The notes under the pieces are model-generated. The model made no database searches, was not told where the DNA came from, and worked only from the letters and a program-made list of their open reading frames with translations. Both the position numbers and the translations under genes were made by a program. From Patescibacteria group bacterium (GTDB lineage: Bacteria; Patescibacteriota; Minisyncoccia; Phycocordibacterales; SIBU01), in the NCBI GenBank assembly GCA_040390045.1, contig JAZJZC010000003.1, positions 66,115-117,668 on the forward strand: a stretch of 51,554 nucleotides of DNA, in the 5' to 3' direction. Shown one piece after another: positions 7,872 to 45,342 of the stretch (position 1 is the first letter of the stretch; each line of letters starts with the position of its first letter).

Positions 7872-8468
7872 TTAATTCTGTTTTGTTGTTTTCGCCACGA
7901 AGTAGGTGCCTTTGTTTGCGAGCAGTTCGTAATTTCCAAAAATTTTATTGAAATTTTTCTCGATAAATCGGCTGAGACCAGAAATAGTCACAACGTAAAA
8001 TTCTCCGCCGGGCAATAAGTGCTGATGCGCTTCTTCAAAAAGGATCCAGAAAAATTCTTTGCTGATTTTGGCGGGGAGGTTGGAGACAATGGTTTGGAAC
8101 TGAATGTTTTTTGGCACTTGGTCAAAGCCGTTGCTGAGATAGGTTTGTGTATTTGTTGCGCTGTTTTGCACAGCATTCTTTTTGGCGTATGCAATTGCCA
8201 CGAAATCTTTATCAATCATGTGGACGGTTGTGTTCGGGTAAAGTTTGGCGAGAGGAATGCCGAGTGGACCGTAGCCACAGCCGAGATCAAGAATTTCGCC
8301 GGTTTGGTTTTCTTTCAAGTCAATTTTCTCCAGAAGTACTTTTGTACCCTCATCAATTTTTTCAGGGCTAAAGAGTCCCCAAGTGGTGGCAAAAGTAAAA
8401 GGCAGACCGCGGAGCGTGGCGTTGAATATAAGATCTTTTTTTAGGTCGGTGATGGGGATGGTGGGCAT
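7872..8468 (-). CDS. class I SAM-dependent methyltransferase (RsmC/RlmG-like small domain)
   Basis: ILDLGCGYGPLGIPLA (motif I), HMIDKDFVAI and VSNLPA (NPPF-like position). Confidence 0.75.
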   Translation of the reverse strand: MPTIPITDLKKDLIFNATLRGLPFTFATTWGLFSPEKIDEGTKVLLEKIDLKENQTGEILDLGCGYGPLGIPLAKLYPNTTVHMIDKDFVAIAYAKKNAVQNSATNTQTYLSNGFDQVPKNIQFQTIVSNLPAKISKEFFWILFEEAHQHLLPGGEFYVVTISGLSRFIEKNFNKIFGNYELLANKGTYFVAKTTKQN

Positions 8469-8514
8469 GGGGAAAGCAATTTTATTATAAGGTATTTTGA
8501 CAACGACTTAATTC

Positions 8515-8769
8515 ACGGGCTCTCCGGCCAGACGCTTCGCTATCGAACTCTTTGCAAAGAATCTTCTTTGGCAGGAGTATCTCCCTCGGCAGGAAATCTT
8601 CCGTTACACGGACGGTCTCCTCGTTGAAACTTTATGGCAGGAGTATCTCCCTCGGCTAAAACTTTTCCGTCGAAAAGTTTTGCCTGGGCACCGGCTCGAA
8701 AAATTTTCTGCTGAAAATTTTATACTCCGCCGTTCGATTCCTGCCGGGAGCCACTCTCTGGCGTTCGTG
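8515..8769 (-). repeat. tRNA 3'-flank structured element, Arg(GCG) copy
   Basis: On the + strand, gttcgattcctgccgggagc (8732-8751) is the exact inverted copy of tRNA 8771-8790. The gcggagt box lies at 8724-8730 on the minus strand. The tccg-tgtaa-cgga hairpin (minus strand) lies at 8600-8612. A degenerate sense copy lies at 8578-8600. A 21-nt direct repeat ggcaggagtatctccctcggc occurs at 8570-8590 and 8636-8656. Confidence 0.65.
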
Positions 8770-8841
8770 TGCTCCCGGCAGGAATCGAACCTGCATTTCT
8801 CCCTTCGCAGGGGAGTGTCCTATCCATTGAACGACGGGAGC
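8770..8841 (-). tRNA. tRNA-Arg(GCG)
   Basis: Minus strand sequence is GCTCCCG..CGGGAGC-A. Anticodon stem CTCCC/GGGAG, loop CTGCGAA, T arm GCAGG-TTCGATT-CCTGC. No CCA. Confidence 0.9.
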
Positions 8842-8849
8842 GTCGGTGA

Positions 8850-8878
8850 AGTGTAAAACGAAAAGCAAAAAATGTAAA
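8850..8878 (-). promoter_or_regulatory. sigma70-like promoter of tRNA-Arg(GCG)
   Basis: On the minus strand: TTTACA, 17 nt, TACACT, then 8 nt to the tRNA 5' end. It is nearly identical to the promoter of tRNA-Arg(TCT). Confidence 0.6.
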
Positions 8879-8924
8879 ATTCCGCGTCTTCCGCGTTTGT
8901 TCTGCGAAGTTCCGCGTGGCTTCA

Positions 8925-9392
8925 CTAAAAACCCAAATATTCTAAAACTCTTTTGGCGAGCGGCTCACTATGCTCTTCTTCTGGAAGATATTTTTTAAGG
9001 TGGTCATGTACTGTGTCGGCAGGAATGTCTCGAATCGGAATTACGATGTAGGGTAATAATTTCTTTTTTGATTTTAAAATAATTTTATGTTCAACGTGTT
9101 GATCTTCAACACAAAAAGATTCTATCGATGAATAGAGATAGCGAATTTTACCCTCTTGAATGCCTCGGTTGTCGAGTTTAATTGGTAAAAGATTTGGCTT
9201 GCGGTTGGCGTAGAGCATCAGGGTACACAAACTCAGAATAATAAAGATGGCAAATAGCACATTGTTAAAAAGAACGGCGGTGATTGCGACAGAGACGGCG
9301 ATGATTCCGACTGCCCAATACCAATCAGCACTTTTTTCCGTGTAGTTGTACTCGTAGGCTTCCCACTCGAGAACACCTTTTTTATTTTCCAT
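8925..9392 (-). CDS. hypothetical membrane protein (155 aa)
   Basis: Two adjacent TM helices (WYWAVGIIAVSVAITAVLF, AIFIILSLCTLMLY) followed by a soluble C-terminal domain. Confidence 0.55.
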   Translation of the reverse strand: MENKKGVLEWEAYEYNYTEKSADWYWAVGIIAVSVAITAVLFNNVLFAIFIILSLCTLMLYANRKPNLLPIKLDNRGIQEGKIRYLYSSIESFCVEDQHVEHKIILKSKKKLLPYIVIPIRDIPADTVHDHLKKYLPEEEHSEPLAKRVLEYLGF

Positions 9393-37791: not shown

Positions 37792-38207
37792 ATGAAAACT
37801 AAACTATACGTCGGTTGCGCCCTAGGAGGACTGACCGAAGACAATAAAAAAGAATTTCTTGAAAAGATTGTTCGGGTTAAAAATATTTTGAGAGGTCAAG
37901 GATTTGAAGTTTTAGAATTTGTGGGATTGGGAGAACACACACCTGCCGAGATTTACCAGCACGATATTTTGGGCTGTGTTGCCGCCTGCGATGCCATGCT
38001 TGCGATTTGTGATTATCCCTCCACGGGGATGGGCTATGACTAGCGACTGTTATTGAGAAGCGTGGCTTGCCAGTGCTCGCTGTGGCTCACACAGACTCAT
38101 TTGTTTCCAAAATTGTTCGCGGTATCTCTAAACCAAATTTTCATTTCGAGCGATACACGGATTTTGAAAAGGAAGTTCCGGCGCTAGTGGAAAAATATTT
38201 AAAATAA
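37792..38207 (+). pseudogene. nucleoside 2-deoxyribosyltransferase-like gene interrupted by a frameshift
   Basis: The first frame ends ...CDYPSTGMGYD-stop at 38041-38043. The reading continues from 38043 in another frame as ATVIEKRGLPVLAVAHTDSF...EKYLK, with the stop at 38205-38207. Restoring one nt in tatga-ctagcg would give GMGYELATVIEK. Confidence 0.65.
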
Positions 38208-38243
38208 GTAAAAATTTGTACGATATATCGTACAAATTTTTAC
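38208..38243. terminator. perfect 36-nt palindrome between convergent genes
   Basis: gtaaaaatttgtacgatat/atcgtacaaatttttac. Confidence 0.7.
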
Positions 38244-38297
38244 TTTTCCTTCTGCGTCTGTTCCGCGTACTTCAGCGTTCGTTCCGCACGGTCTCGC

Positions 38298-38951
38298 TTA
38301 TTTTTTCTCCTCAGGTGACTTGAGTACCGCGAAATCTGCTTTTAGTTTTCGAATTTGGCCTTTCATAATGAGTGTGGCTTCGTCGCGTTTTTCCCGACCG
38401 ACGCCATCGACGATGTCTTTTTTGTGGTATTTACTTTTACGTGCGTTGACTGCTTCAGTTAGTTCTTCAAAAACAATTTGGCAGACGCGCTCTCCAGGAT
38501 AGAGCCTGACCGCTTGCGAATGAGTGTTATTACGAAGAGGAAGAGTGAGTTGTCCCTCGTACCCTGAATCGATAATACCGGTAAGATCGAGAGAAAGTCC
38601 TTTGCGGTTGGTGGATGATCTTGGGTAGAGCACCGCCATCAAATCTTTAGGAATTTTAATAGTTTCAAGTGTTGAAACCAATACGTATTCGTGAGGCAAC
38701 AGTTCAAAATATTGTCCCTCTTCAAGTTCCACAACATCGAAAAAGCCGCTGTTATTTTTATCGAAGTGGGTGTTGTCGAGCGACTCTCTGCCGTTCGCAG
38801 TCAGGTGCCAAATTTTAGGAATAAGAAATGTAAATCCCAATCGAAGGTCAACGGCGTGTTCCTGCAGTTGCATGCTGTCGAGGTTTGGGCTAAAAGTGAT
38901 TTCACCTTTCTCGACGCGTTCGATAATTTGTTTTTTGGTTATGACGCTCAT
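38298..38951 (-). CDS. dCTP deaminase (Dcd) family protein lacking the catalytic Glu
   Basis: AVDLRLG, PRSSTNRKGL and GIIDSGYEGQLTLPLRN. An ungapped local match to E. coli IDPGWSGCIVLEFYN places Pro138 (codon 38538-38540) at Glu138. Confidence 0.75.
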   Translation of the reverse strand: MSVITKKQIIERVEKGEITFSPNLDSMQLQEHAVDLRLGFTFLIPKIWHLTANGRESLDNTHFDKNNSGFFDVVELEEGQYFELLPHEYVLVSTLETIKIPKDLMAVLYPRSSTNRKGLSLDLTGIIDSGYEGQLTLPLRNNTHSQAVRLYPGERVCQIVFEELTEAVNARKSKYHKKDIVDGVGREKRDEATLIMKGQIRKLKADFAVLKSPEEKK

Positions 38952-38998: not shown

Positions 38999-39496
38999 CT
39001 AAGATTTGCGGATGTAAACTTGATAATCAGCGTCAAATGGGTTTTTATCATCCTTCGCTTCAAATTTTGATTCGGTAAGTTTCCAGATTGTTGGATCAAG
39101 GGGAGGGAAGAAGGCGTCACCTTCAATCGTTGTGTGAATGAGTGTTCGGTATACCTTGTCGGTTTTTGGAAAAGCCTCAGCATACAAGTGAGCTCCACCA
39201 ATATTAAATACCTCTGTTTCGGCTGAGGTTTTTTCAAGGGCTTCTTCAAAAGAATGAACAACGATACATCCAGGCGCTTTGAAATCCGCATTACGTGTTA
39301 CGACAATATTAACTCGATCGGGAAGGGGTTTGCCCAAACTATTCATGATGGATTCGTACGTATTTCGGCCCATAATCACCGTATGGCCTTTTGTTATTGC
39401 GGCAAAATGTTTTTGATCGCTAGGCATTCGCCAAGGGATTTTATTACCTTGTCCGATGACGTTATTTTCTGACGTGGCGACAATTATCGATAGCAT
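38999..39496 (-). CDS. folA: dihydrofolate reductase
   Basis: IIVATSENNVIGQGNKIPWRMPSDQKHF, IMGRNTYESI and FNIGGAHLY. Confidence 0.9.
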   Translation of the reverse strand: MLSIIVATSENNVIGQGNKIPWRMPSDQKHFAAITKGHTVIMGRNTYESIMNSLGKPLPDRVNIVVTRNADFKAPGCIVVHSFEEALEKTSAETEVFNIGGAHLYAEAFPKTDKVYRTLIHTTIEGDAFFPPLDPTIWKLTESKFEAKDDKNPFDADYQVYIRKS

Positions 39497-39498
39497 AG

Positions 39499-40335
39499 TT
39501 ATAAAGCGATTTTGAGGCCTTTAATGGCTTCGTGTGGTTTGTATTGATTAGTTAGATTTTCTACAATTTCTTCCACCAATTTTTTATCTTGTTTTTCAGC
39601 ACGGTCGAAGGCATTTTTTGGCAAGCTTAAAACAATTTTTGGATGATTGTTTTCGCGTTTGATCATTTCGTCAGCTGCAAAATAGTGATTGTCGTAAATG
39701 TGCGCGTTGGAAATTGAATGCGAGTAAATTCCGGGACGAACTCCTAATTTTTGCGCCAGAATGTGAGCGAGTAGAGCAAAACCGGCGACGTCAGAGGGAA
39801 ATCCCAGAACGATATCGTTTGATCGGACGATGTTGTGAAAATTTAGTCGTCCGCCAATAATATTTACGGTAAATGTATATGGGCAGGGAACATTTTTTTT
39901 CACAGCTCCACCAAGCCCATCTTGCGCCGGATCCCAAGTCACCACCACGCCGTGTCGGGAGCTCGGTTCTTTTTGCAAAAGTTTAATGAGTAATCCAAGC
40001 TGGTCGCGACCGAAGTGTTTCCGCCATCGATAGCCATAGGCAACAGTGACCACATCTCCCGGGTTGGTAAACATGTCCCAAATTTTTGTAAATTGTCGCA
40101 GGAAAATTTCGGGCTTCCTTGCGCCGGTAATAAACCAAACTTGTTCGGCCACAAACATTGGTATTGGAATTTTCCGCAAGGTCAAAAGAGGGAAGCCATC
40201 TTTTTCAAGATCAATGGAAAAATGCATGCCGGGAATAGCTTTGGTTTCGTGTCCGGTGCGCTCGTTCATCTCAGAGATACCCTTGGTTTGGATATCTTTC
40301 AGGATGTTTTTATAGACTTCATCGAATATTGCCAT
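39499..40335 (-). CDS. thymidylate synthase (ThyA) family enzyme with dCMP-type specificity residue
   Basis: RTGHET, EQVWF, AYGYRWR, nucleophile Cys151 (codon 39883-39885), RSND and LGFPSDVAGFALL. Asp182 (codon 39790-39792) aligns without gaps to E. coli Asn177. The C-terminal IKGLKIAL is TS-like. Confidence 0.8.
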   Translation of the reverse strand: MAIFDEVYKNILKDIQTKGISEMNERTGHETKAIPGMHFSIDLEKDGFPLLTLRKIPIPMFVAEQVWFITGARKPEIFLRQFTKIWDMFTNPGDVVTVAYGYRWRKHFGRDQLGLLIKLLQKEPSSRHGVVVTWDPAQDGLGGAVKKNVPCPYTFTVNIIGGRLNFHNIVRSNDIVLGFPSDVAGFALLAHILAQKLGVRPGIYSHSISNAHIYDNHYFAADEMIKRENNHPKIVLSLPKNAFDRAEKQDKKLVEEIVENLTNQYKPHEAIKGLKIAL

Positions 40336-40407: not shown

Positions 40408-40911
40408 ATGAATATTCCTTTTCCCTACATGCCCGAAGGACGAACCGTTAAATTTGTCCCTGCTCATGATCGATTTATGCGCGCGGCTGAAACAGCGTGC
40501 AGGGAACTTTCGACAGATTATAACCATCCGAATGGCGCAGTCTTGGTTAAAGACGGAACGGTAATTGCTCGCGCCGCAAATCAGTCTGGTTTGAAGAATA
40601 AAAAAATGCTTCAACTTCATAAAGCCGGTTGGTGTGTGCGCCGCATTTTAAAAATTCCTTCAGGGCAAAAATATTGGCTTTGCCCGGGATGCGCGTCATC
40701 AAAAAATCATTCCGAAACGCGTGTCGTCAAAACTGCTCAAAAACAAGGGCTGGATACTACAGGGGCTGATGTCTATCTGTGGGGACACTGGTGGTGTTGT
40801 GAACCGTGTTGGAATTCGATGATCGCCGGCGGTATCAAAGATGTCTATCTTCTTGAGGGCAGTGATAAGCTTTTTAATCCTAAATTTCCGGAAAATATAA
40901 TTGGAAAGTAG
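40408..40911 (+). CDS. CMP/dCMP-type zinc deaminase with Cys-rich insert
   Basis: HSE (HxE) and CCEPCWNSM (PCxxC-like) zinc motifs. There is an extra CVRR...CPGC segment between them. Start set at the ATG at 40408. Confidence 0.7.
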   Translation: MNIPFPYMPEGRTVKFVPAHDRFMRAAETACRELSTDYNHPNGAVLVKDGTVIARAANQSGLKNKKMLQLHKAGWCVRRILKIPSGQKYWLCPGCASSKNHSETRVVKTAQKQGLDTTGADVYLWGHWWCCEPCWNSMIAGGIKDVYLLEGSDKLFNPKFPENIIGK

Positions 40912-41079: not shown

Positions 41080-42252
41080 ATGAAAGACAAACAAATTGAA
41101 AAACTTATAAAACTCGAAGAAGCTCGGCAGAAGAAGGTGATCAATCTTATCGCTTCGGAAAATTATGTTTCAAAAGATGTGTTGACAGCACTCGGTTCAA
41201 AACTGACCGACAAGTATGGGGAAGGGTATCCAGGAAAAAGATATTATCGCGGTACAAAGGTTGTCGATGAGGTTGAATTGCTCGCGCAAAAACGCGCGTT
41301 GGAACTTTTTGATCTTGATCCGCAACGGTGGAGTGTCAACGTCCAGCCGCTTTCAGGTTCGCCTGCCAACTTCGCAGTGTATTCCGCGCTTGTGCCACCA
41401 GGAGGGAAAATTATGGGTATGACACTCTCGCATGGAGGACATCTCACTCACGGTCAACCAGTTTCTATGACTGGAAAATTTTGGATGCAAGTGCCGTATG
41501 GACTTTCAAAAGAAACTGAACAACTTGATTATGAAGAAGTAAAAAAAATTGCTGTTGCTGAAAAGCCCAACATTATCGTTGCGGGTTTTACCGCCTACGC
41601 GCACGTGGTAGATTTCAAAAAGTTTCGAGAAATTGCAGACGCTTCAGGAGCAATTCTCATGGTAGACATGTCGCATTTCGCGGGACTTGTAGCAGGAAAA
41701 GTGTATCTGTCACCATTTTTGTATGCTGACATAGTGACTACTACTACGCACAAAACACTTCGCGGTCCGCGTTCGGCCATGATTTTTTCCAAAATTGACG
41801 AACGCGAGTTTAACAAAAAAATAGACAAAATTATTATTCCAGGTCTTCAAGGTGGCCCACACTTCAATCAAATTGCCGCGGTGGCTGTTGCTCTCAAAGA
41901 AGCCAATACGCCCGCATTCAAAAAGTACGCGTCCCAAATAATTAAAAATGCGAAAGTGCTAGCGGACGAACTTGCCAAACTTGGCTGGAGAATTGTTGAA
42001 GGTGGGACAGAAACCCATTTGTTGCGCGTTGATGTTTGGCAAGACGGGAAAGGAATTAGCGGGCGAGAAGCGGCAGATAAACTGGAAGCGGCGGGAATTA
42101 TTGTTAACGAAAATACGATTCCTTTCGATACTAGAAAACCCATGGATCCATCGGGCATTCGTCTCGGTACGCCAGCAGAAACGACACGCGGAAAAAAAGA
42201 AAAAGATTTTCGCAAGATTGCGCAGAAAATAGATGAAGTTTTGAGAAAATAA
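41080..42252 (+). CDS. glyA: serine hydroxymethyltransferase
   Basis: LIASENYVS, GYPGKRYY, LSHGGHLTHG and TTTTHKTLRGPR (PLP lysine). Confidence 0.95.
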   Translation: MKDKQIEKLIKLEEARQKKVINLIASENYVSKDVLTALGSKLTDKYGEGYPGKRYYRGTKVVDEVELLAQKRALELFDLDPQRWSVNVQPLSGSPANFAVYSALVPPGGKIMGMTLSHGGHLTHGQPVSMTGKFWMQVPYGLSKETEQLDYEEVKKIAVAEKPNIIVAGFTAYAHVVDFKKFREIADASGAILMVDMSHFAGLVAGKVYLSPFLYADIVTTTTHKTLRGPRSAMIFSKIDEREFNKKIDKIIIPGLQGGPHFNQIAAVAVALKEANTPAFKKYASQIIKNAKVLADELAKLGWRIVEGGTETHLLRVDVWQDGKGISGREAADKLEAAGIIVNENTIPFDTRKPMDPSGIRLGTPAETTRGKKEKDFRKIAQKIDEVLRK

Positions 42253-44258: not shown

Positions 44259-44915
44259 ATGTCGTGTATGACGCAGAAAGGAAAATTTATTGTGATCGAT
44301 GGTGGGGAAGGGGCAGGGAAAAGTACCCTGATGGGTTTTTTGCCGGAAATTTTTCCCTCGACGCCGAGCTCGGGACAAGCCACATTTCTAGCTACACGCG
44401 AGCCTGGAGGTTCTCCGTTTGCTGAAGAAATTCGCAATTTGATGCTTTCTCGTCCCGAATCAAAAAATGCTTCGCCTGAAACTCAGTTTGGTCTTGTGTG
44501 GGCCGCGCGACACGACCACCTTCAGAAAAAAATTATTCCAGCACTTAATGAGGGAGTTCATGTTATTTCTGATCGCTTCGATTCTTCAACCTACGCCTAT
44601 CAAATTTTTGGCCAAGAGGCGCCGCAATTAGAAAAACTTTTTTGGGATATTCGTAATATTTACTTACGTGATGCGCAGCCTGACCTCTATATTTTTCTCG
44701 ATATCGATCCTGCGATTGGCCTCAAGCGTGTGGCAGAACGTCGCAAGGAGACAGACCATTTTGATCAGCGGAAATTGGATTTTCACCAGAGAATTCGCGA
44801 AGGCTATTTAGAATTTCTAAAAAAAGTACCAAGCGTGATTATTGATTCGAGTGGCACAATTCCGGAGGGGAAGGAAAAGTTTTTTGAGGCAATAAAAAGC
44901 GCCCTATTAAAATAA
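44259..44915 (+). CDS. tmk: thymidylate (dNMP) kinase
   Basis: FIVIDGGEGAGKST, TREPGG, DRFDSSTYAYQ. Start moved to the ATG at 44259 (or 44268), downstream of the terminator. Confidence 0.85.
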   Translation: MSCMTQKGKFIVIDGGEGAGKSTLMGFLPEIFPSTPSSGQATFLATREPGGSPFAEEIRNLMLSRPESKNASPETQFGLVWAARHDHLQKKIIPALNEGVHVISDRFDSSTYAYQIFGQEAPQLEKLFWDIRNIYLRDAQPDLYIFLDIDPAIGLKRVAERRKETDHFDQRKLDFHQRIREGYLEFLKKVPSVIIDSSGTIPEGKEKFFEAIKSALLK

Positions 44916-44919
44916 TTGT

Positions 44920-45342
44920 ATGGAAATTAAAATTAAACGATTACACCCCGACGCCAAATTGCCGAGTTACGCTCATCCGGGAGACGTGGGGCTTGATCTG
45001 TTTTCGTTGGAGGAGGTGACGGTAGCTCCCGGAGCGCACCATCGTTTTGCTAACGGTTTCGCTTTAGAATTTCCAGAGGGTTACGCCGCTATCGTCAAAG
45101 ACAAGGGAGGTATTTCAAAAGCAGGACTTCATTGTATGGGCGGAGTGTTTGATGCAGGATTTCGTGGCGAGTACAATGTGCATCTGGTAAATTTAGGTGA
45201 CAAAGCGTACACCTTTGAAAAAGGTGATAAAGTGGCACAACTCGTGATTTTTCCGGTGGCAATTGCTAAGCTTGTTGAGGCGAAGGAACTTTCAGATAGC
45301 AGTAGGGGGATGGGGCAGTTTGGGAGCACTGGAAGAAAGTAG
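44920..45342 (+). CDS. dut: trimeric dUTPase
   Basis: GDVGLDL, GGVFDAGFRGEY and RGMGQFGSTG. Motif 2 is atypical (KDKGG instead of PRSG). Confidence 0.8.
   Translation: MEIKIKRLHPDAKLPSYAHPGDVGLDLFSLEEVTVAPGAHHRFANGFALEFPEGYAAIVKDKGGISKAGLHCMGGVFDAGFRGEYNVHLVNLGDKAYTFEKGDKVAQLVIFPVAIAKLVEAKELSDSSRGMGQFGSTGRK

Follow-up and report, generated by a model that had tools for sequence, protein, structure and literature searches.

The 51,554-nucleotide stretch of contig JAZJZC010000003.1 of a Patescibacteria group bacterium that we analysed here (the window) encodes a protein of the dCTP deaminase (Dcd) family in which the catalytic glutamate is missing. We propose, with moderate confidence, that this protein, the Glu-less Dcd, is a deoxycytidine triphosphate (dCTP) pyrophosphatase that forms deoxycytidine monophosphate (dCMP), and that deamination has been passed to a zinc deaminase. 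We infer dCTP as the substrate, dCMP as the product and the order of the steps from the residues of the protein together with its gene context.

The original prediction had placed a proline, Pro138, at the position of the deaminase general base (Glu138 in E. coli Dcd), and this holds. The codon reads cct, and phmmer alignments against the sequences of the Protein Data Bank pair the query segment 'gqltlplrn' with 'gqitlelfn' of 4xjc, the bifunctional enzyme (dCTP deaminase and dUTPase, DCD-DUT) of B. halodurans, and with 'ghitlelsn' of 2qlp and 2qxx, the DCD-DUT of M. tuberculosis. Therefore, Pro138 sits at the catalytic position. An alignment that would restore the glutamate was rejected, since phmmer, MAFFT and the fold comparison all put Pro138 there, and the nearby Glu132 was rejected as the missing residue because it is not conserved among distant members of the clade. 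Residues 125-141, GIIDSGYEGQLTLPLRN, also contain Asp128 (gat, 38570-38568). The aspartate of the ID motif and the RSS motif, both reported earlier as kept, are indeed present, and the motif III aspartate, RSS and Arg116 are kept across the clade.

The comparison with related families by hidden Markov model (HMM) and structure, which had been suggested as a check, assigns the protein to the Dcd family on both counts and leaves it below the cut-offs for Dut and for archaeal dUTPases. HMM scores were 119.7 bits for PF22769 and 122.1 bits for TIGR02274 (dCTP deaminase; cut-off 92.8). Because the latter score exceeds its cut-off, public records name the protein "dCTP deaminase". Its AlphaFold2 model (mean predicted local distance difference test score 79, core >90) was closest in Foldseek to E. 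coli Dcd (1xs4, E 6.8e-15; 1xs1), followed by the bifunctional enzymes of M. tuberculosis, B. halodurans and Methanocaldococcus (M. jannaschii), with canonical Dut far behind. The Glu-less Dcd thus has the homology, fold and score of a dCTP deaminase (EC 3.5.4.13), and the Ser and Arg of RSSxxR (S111 and R115 in E. coli) are found as S112 and R116, but the catalytic Glu is absent and the residues A124, P129, T136 and Y172 (window numbering), typical only of Glu-type proteins, are not matched; a Dut-like motif II (PRSS) and Tyr131 set it further apart from E. coli Dcd. Nor does it qualify as a bifunctional enzyme (EC 3.5.4.30), which needs the Glu in addition to Asp128. As a trimeric dUTPase it reaches only 51.6 bits against TIGR00576 (cut-off 102.55) and is missing motif V (RGxxGFGSTG), while its motif III, GIIDSGYEG, fits G-x-I-D-x-x-Y-x-G and resembles GIIDADYCG of the Dut encoded in the window. 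Its Pfam matches are DCD, dUTPase and DCD_N only, with none to MazG or dUTPase_2, which sets it apart from the MazG/DCTPP1/T4 gp56 group.

Proline occupies the Glu position in all 120 nearest homologs (70-100% identity), in 119/119 proteins from a second search that started from a homolog of 38% identity (Ryan-, Uhr-, Doudnabacteria and others), and in 80/80 species loci. Of the best 150 cluster representatives (clustering at 50% identity), 27 carry Pro and 112 carry Glu, and the Pro-type rows form a single clade in a FastTree phylogeny (SH-like support 89). To judge from this distribution, the loss of the Glu is neither a sequencing error nor a chance event. Serine stands at this position in two distant members, L098 (6554-7210, 'LALSVINN') and L099 (1992-2675, 'LIVSMLNN'), whose operon is colinear: Asp-type thymidylate synthase (TS) homolog, dihydrofolate reductase (DHFR), Dcd, deaminase, (Tmk). 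Therefore, the conserved trait is the absence of Glu and not Pro itself. The clade is rare, with 5 occurrences among 401 genomes sampled across the class. A tblastn search of 50,697 phage records matched nothing but archaeal-virus and other Dcd/Dut genes, at 39% identity or less, and a scan of IMG/VR gave three weak matches (26-30%). A phage origin was rejected on these results, and the clade therefore looks cellular.

The positions that are kept and those that are relaxed fall into distinct sets. R37, P86, R111, R116, G125, G133, N141, G153 and R155 are invariant clade-wide and D128 is invariant or nearly so; within the Pro clade conservation reaches 96% for D128, 93% for Y131 and at least 81% for S112/S113. 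R111, S112, S113 and R116 are conserved in Glu-type Dcd as well. A124, P129, T136 and Y172 are 82-96% conserved in the 112 Glu-type representatives and variable or replaced in the 27 Pro-type ones. In a position-by-position comparison, P110, S/A129 and Y131 of the Pro clade shift toward the Dut consensus. The residue pattern is that expected of an active nucleotide hydrolase that has abandoned deamination.

The gene context links the Glu-less Dcd to enzymes that act on cytosine nucleotides and make thymidylate. The operon begins with a TS homolog, followed after a 2-nt gap by DHFR, then the Dcd-like gene and a hairpin, and the genes for a zinc deaminase and serine hydroxymethyltransferase (SHMT) are divergent from it (Table 1). 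In the TS homolog, 'rsndivlgfpsdvagf' aligns with 'rsadiflgvpfniasy', so that an Asn is changed to Asp while the catalytic Cys is kept; we call this form Asp-type. Linkage was surveyed by a locus scan with an alignment of 8 sequences and one genome per GTDB species, in which 80 loci were kept of 228 relatives; counts across relatives are not phylogenetically independent. A survey of the Glu-to-Pro variant alongside the Asp-type TS, likewise suggested earlier, showed a TS gene immediately upstream of the Glu-less Dcd in 76/80 loci, and the diagnostic residue, readable in 75 of these 76, was Asp in every case. The window-type zinc deaminase was adjacent in 71/80 loci. Four genomes in which it was missing from the neighbourhood were tested, and all four encode it at another place. 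Across 41 relatives in the order, the Glu-less Dcd was present in 7 (>300 bits), the Asp-type TS (>440 bits) in the same 7 plus one 70%-complete genome, and the window-type deaminase in exactly those 8. By comparison, four of the five genomes with a Glu-type Dcd had no match to a zinc dCMP deaminase. Seven more contexts came from distant members, Uhrbacteria and Doudnabacteria among them; the deaminase was adjacent in 5 of these, and the TS was Asp-type in 5/5 cases where one was present. One of these contexts, L108, is a bare two-gene operon of Dcd and deaminase, with the Asp-type TS elsewhere in the genome. The zinc deaminase, rather than the TS, is the tightest partner of the Glu-less Dcd.

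Two genomes, one of them (G002) of the same genus and the other G014, carry an alternative gene set at the same locus. Between NusG/L11 and SHMT they have an Asn-type ThyA ('GVPFNIASY', 'PCH'), a Glu-type Dcd ('RWTMEITNN', TIGR02274 92.9 bits) and DHFR, and no zinc deaminase was found anywhere in either genome. The modules lie at 3831-5492 of L091 (G002:C6:35000-44000) and at 5878-8062 of L092 (G014:C8), within the locus NusG-L11...SHMT-Tmk-Dut; the Glu-type Dcd is 224 aa long, and G014 has two ThyA copies. The G002 locus looks like a swap of the whole module with the set of Asp-type TS, Glu-less Dcd and deaminase. Given this swap and the lack of zinc deaminases in four of the five Glu-type genomes, deamination would therefore fall to the Dcd where it is Glu-type, and to a distinct zinc enzyme where it is Glu-less. 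A third thymidylate module occupies the same locus in L103-L106 (G024, G038, G025, G011; e.g. L104 1693-4602) and has no Dcd-family gene. It consists of an Asn-type ThyA of 311-319 aa ('GVPFNM'), a PF01467 cytidylyltransferase-like protein, a HIT-like protein, and a protein of 276-295 aa that joins a dCMP-deaminase domain at its C-terminus to an N-terminal half of no known type.

The original prediction took the protein to be probably no deaminase, and named a dCTPase that feeds the Asp-type TS as one candidate function. Sequence and comparative genomics, as far as they reach, support this interpretation. The loss of Glu, the retained hydrolytic residues, the linkage to TS in 76/80 loci, the presence of Dut and the absence of MazG speak for a dCTPase; the restriction to TS does not stand, as three genomes show. 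L024, whose protein is 72-74% identical to that of the window and its sister in the tree, combines a Pro-type Dcd with a ComEB-like deaminase and a gene of the ThyX family; ThyA-family genes are absent from its genome. In L096 a Pro-type Dcd stands with a dCMP-deaminase-family gene and ThyX, and L097 has a Pro-type Dcd, a deaminase, canonical ThyA (382 bits), DHFR and two Dut genes. The Asp-type TS is absent genome-wide in all three. Therefore, no 5-methyl-dCMP is expected in them, and the role would be supply of dCMP in general and not one specific to 5-methyl-deoxycytidine. The function shared by the main clade and the ThyX/ThyA genomes is best described as a predicted supply of dCMP, made from dCTP, to a downstream monophosphate deaminase. 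L096 also encodes a second Dcd-family protein (8405-8965, + strand; 186 aa; PF22769 87 bits) that adjoins the deaminase and has neither the motif III Asp ('GNVAPGY') nor the Glu ('LTFALKN'). This possible paralog may have no activity, or a different one.

The inventory of the organism's own genome (0.95 Mb, 99.9% complete, 43% GC) leaves few other candidates. It has a single Dcd-family gene, a single TS-family gene (the Asp-type one, in the Dcd operon) and a single zinc deaminase, and searches of this genome found no ThyX, MazG, thymidine kinase (TK), deoxynucleoside kinase (dNK) or second Dcd. Dut and Tmk both pass curated cut-offs. The Glu-less Dcd is thus not needed as a dUTPase, and there is no other dCTPase candidate. 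No ribonucleotide reductase (RNR) of class I/II or III was found in this genome, where the one RNR-related match is to an ATP-cone (G000:C4:13769-14134, outside the window; possibly NrdR). RNR as the source of dCTP was accordingly rejected. Among relatives RNR is patchy, without relation to the type of Dcd.

Table 1. Features of the window discussed in the text, with the evidence for each
Feature	Position	Strand	Evidence or reading
Glu-less Dcd-family gene, 217 aa	38298..38951	-	PF22769, TIGR02274, fold; predicted dCMP-forming dCTP pyrophosphatase
Pro138 codon cct	38540-38538	-	position of the deaminase general-base Glu (E. coli E138)
PRSSTNRKG, residues 110-118	38624-38598	-	phosphate-binding motif II (R111, S112, S113) and Dcd-type Arg116
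GIIDSGY, motif III	38559..38579	-	hydrolytic Asp128 and sugar-stacking Tyr131
Hairpin, 18-bp stem, just downstream of the Dcd-like gene	38206..38245	.	probably the operon terminator
Dihydrofolate reductase, flanked by the TS homolog and the Dcd-like gene	38999..39496	-	PF00186 188 bits; start 2 nt past the TS stop
Asp-type thymidylate-synthase homolog, first gene of the operon	39499..40335	-	PF00303 176.9 bits; predicted dCMP methylase
Zinc deaminase, dCMP_cyt_deam_1 family, 'GHWWCC.PCW' type	40408..40911	+	PF00383 38.9 bits
Serine hydroxymethyltransferase (one-carbon supply)	41080..42252	+	PF00464 520 bits
dTMP kinase	44265..44915	+	TIGR00041 138.9 bits (cut-off 83.25)
Canonical trimeric dUTPase (Dut)	44920..45342	+	NF001862 111.3 (cut-off 103); TIGR00576 106.2 (cut-off 102.55)

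Herein, we describe the route that these observations suggest. The Glu-less Dcd would be a homotrimer-type enzyme of the dUTPase superfamily, descended from a dCTP deaminase, which has lost the deamination chemistry and retained the nucleotide pocket and the machinery for hydrolysis between the alpha and beta phosphates. It would convert dCTP to dCMP and pyrophosphate, probably under the control by thymidine triphosphate (dTTP) that is typical of the family. In its own genome the Asp-type TS would then methylate dCMP to 5-methyl-dCMP, with the folate recycled by DHFR, SHMT and FolD, and the neighbouring zinc deaminase would convert 5-methyl-dCMP to thymidine monophosphate (dTMP), the substrate of Tmk. 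In ThyX/ThyA genomes, dCMP would instead be converted by dCMP deaminase to deoxyuridine monophosphate (dUMP) and from there to dTMP. On this proposal, the reaction that the bifunctional DCD-DUT carries out in one enzyme, from dCTP to dUMP, would have been split over two proteins. The bifunctional enzymes have the same fold and give the best sequence matches (4xjc, 69.7 bits, 30% identity); both have the RSS of motif II, the Arg typical of Dcd, the Asp of motif III and the Arg of motif IV, and DCD-DUT also releases pyrophosphate. They differ in that the Glu-less Dcd has Pro at the catalytic Glu and relaxed residues at several other deaminase-linked positions, and in that its predicted product is dCMP and not dUMP, with deamination left to another, zinc-dependent enzyme.

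The analogy with T4 gp56 that was drawn in the original prediction survives in its logic, dCTP to dCMP, and fails as a relationship, because gp56 belongs to an unrelated all-alpha pyrophosphatase superfamily. Human DCTPP1, T4 gp56 and the MazG superfamily share with the Glu-less Dcd the proposed reaction and the role of feeding thymidylate or modified-cytosine synthesis, but not the fold, so that the likeness is one of function and not of family membership. Human DCTPP1 initiates a route dCTP -> dCMP -> dUMP -> dTMP (PMC7162842). Two further papers that were considered for a Dcd-family dCTPase, PMC12697855 and PMC13326640, deal with unrelated folds.

Several observations weigh against a dCTPase. 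The sequence cannot separate dCTP, deoxyuridine triphosphate (dUTP) and 5-methyl-dCTP as the substrate, and all characterised enzymes with the Dcd fold and no Glu are dUTPases. Many relatives run a module of ThyA plus deaminase without any Dcd-family gene, and two of the distant contexts, L110 and L111, show no deaminase within 5 kb. Moreover, as the organism's own genome is without RNR, dCMP could come directly from salvage, and there would be no obvious need for a dCTPase. On the last point, sister genomes that run a genuine Glu-type Dcd are also without RNR, and dCTP as a branch point therefore poses no special difficulty in an RNR-less cell.

If the substrate were 5-methyl-dCTP, the protein could be a sanitiser, which hydrolyses this kinase product of 5-methyl-dCMP back to 5-methyl-dCMP, keeps 5-methylcytosine out of DNA and returns the intermediate to the deaminase, in parallel with Dut acting on dUTP and DCTPP1 on 5-modified dCTP. 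In most genomes the Glu-less Dcd does occur together with both the deaminase and the Asp-type TS, Dcd-family active sites admit a 5-methyl pyrimidine (dTTP complexes 2j4q, 2qxx), some operons contain extra genes resembling deoxynucleoside monophosphate (dNMP) kinases, and PMC7162842 describes a high affinity of DCTPP1 for 5-modified dCTP. We nevertheless regard the sanitiser as unlikely, although it is the least improbable of the alternatives, because L024, L096 and L097 keep a Pro-type Dcd beside a dCMP deaminase with only ThyX or Asn-type ThyA, where 5-methyl-dCMP is not expected. A dual role on dCTP and 5-methyl-dCTP is possible. A bolder reading, which we think quite improbable, is a cellular form of the Xp12/T4 strategy: the Glu-less Dcd would deplete dCTP, the Asp-type TS and the dNMP-kinase-like genes would build 5-methyl-dCTP, cytosine in the organism's own DNA would be partly or wholly replaced by 5-methylcytosine at the level of the nucleotides, and the zinc deaminase would draw only the thymidine share.

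The precedent of the archaeal Dcd-like dUTPases raises the question of whether the protein is a second dUTPase, converting dUTP to dUMP. P45 of P. furiosus (9ln0, 9ln3) and the T. pacificus protein (8y1w), the characterised Dcd-fold proteins without Glu (Met in 9ln0), are hydrolases only and not deaminases, which is also a precedent for the hydrolase that we propose. All three structures are among the fold matches of the Glu-less Dcd, and its motif III is nearly identical to that of Dut. These archaeal proteins are, however, only 155-156 aa long and lack its 50-residue C-terminal extension; on their model NF002598 (cut-off 130) it scores 58 bits, and it occurs alongside a canonical Dut and is tied genomically to cytosine-handling enzymes. 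Dut lies within 8 kb in 33/80 loci and L097 has two Dut genes, the Dcd-specific Arg116 is invariant, and a second dUTPase would leave the obligatory zinc-deaminase partner unexplained; we give it a low probability, somewhat below that of the sanitiser. Somewhat less probable again is a non-catalytic nucleotide-binding subunit, one that for instance senses dCTP/dTTP and either regulates the TS homolog and the deaminase or serves them as a scaffold. The persistent tight adjacency to the deaminase, down to the bare two-gene operon of L108, would suit such a subunit, as would the binding of dTTP at the active site for which the family is known (2qxx, 2j4q), but Asp128, the motif II Arg and Ser, and Arg155 of motif IV would hardly stay invariant or nearly so at 35-40% identity. 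Least probable, to the point of being very doubtful, is a dCTP deaminase that works through another general base. The conserved Glu191, present in 96% of the clade, lies in a C-terminal arm that could close over the active site. Against this, the same acidic C-terminal motif is found in the Glu-type Dcd of G002, the other deaminase-only positions are relaxed, and genomes with the Glu-less Dcd always have a zinc deaminase, which 4/5 Glu-type genomes do not.

Some further features of the window and of related operons were recorded. Dut of the window, about 6 kb from the Glu-less Dcd, has a motif V of 'GQFGSTG', a motif II of 'KDKGG' in place of the usual 'PRSG', and Lys replacing Arg in motif IV. 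A frameshifted Ndt-like gene (37792-38043) adjoins the cluster. It is echoed in an Uhrbacteria locus (L109, 5660-6574, - strand), where a single protein of 304 aa unites the partner deaminase with a domain like nucleoside 2-deoxyribosyltransferase. On an 816-kb contig, L111 (5001-6003) has DHFR, a Pro-type Dcd and then a 108-aa MazG-family gene, with no TS or deaminase within 5 kb. One or two small P-loop kinases are added to the operon in L113 (6148-7788) and L107 (6412-6963); they are similar to PRK08356 and to the kinase-like domain at the N-terminus of anti-phage dCTP deaminases, and are possible dCMP or 5-methyl-dCMP kinases.

A full-text literature search turned up no publication about either a bacterial Dcd lacking the Glu or this route in Patescibacteria. 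The evidence contributed by this analysis consists of the swap of modules at one locus, the members that go with ThyX or ThyA, the variants with Ser, and the complementary occurrence across genomes with respect to zinc deaminases. The trimeric dUTPase superfamily is known for three activities, namely those of dUTPase, of dCTP deaminase and of the enzyme that combines the two; a pyrophosphatase that forms dCMP from dCTP would, if the proposal is true, be the fourth. The way in which cells dependent on dCMP deaminase obtain dCMP from dCTP or dCDP is poorly defined; for humans, DCTPP1 was put forward as late as 2019. In the genomes studied here, the deaminase has a conserved operon partner that would be an enzyme dedicated to supplying dCMP. 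This enzyme would open a thymidylate route that deaminates the monophosphate and no longer the triphosphate, and in most of these genomes deamination would follow methylation, with dUMP bypassed. In practical terms, the name "dCTP deaminase" is probably wrong for well over a thousand entries in databases, and metabolic reconstructions of Patescibacteria built on such entries would assign the wrong dUMP route.

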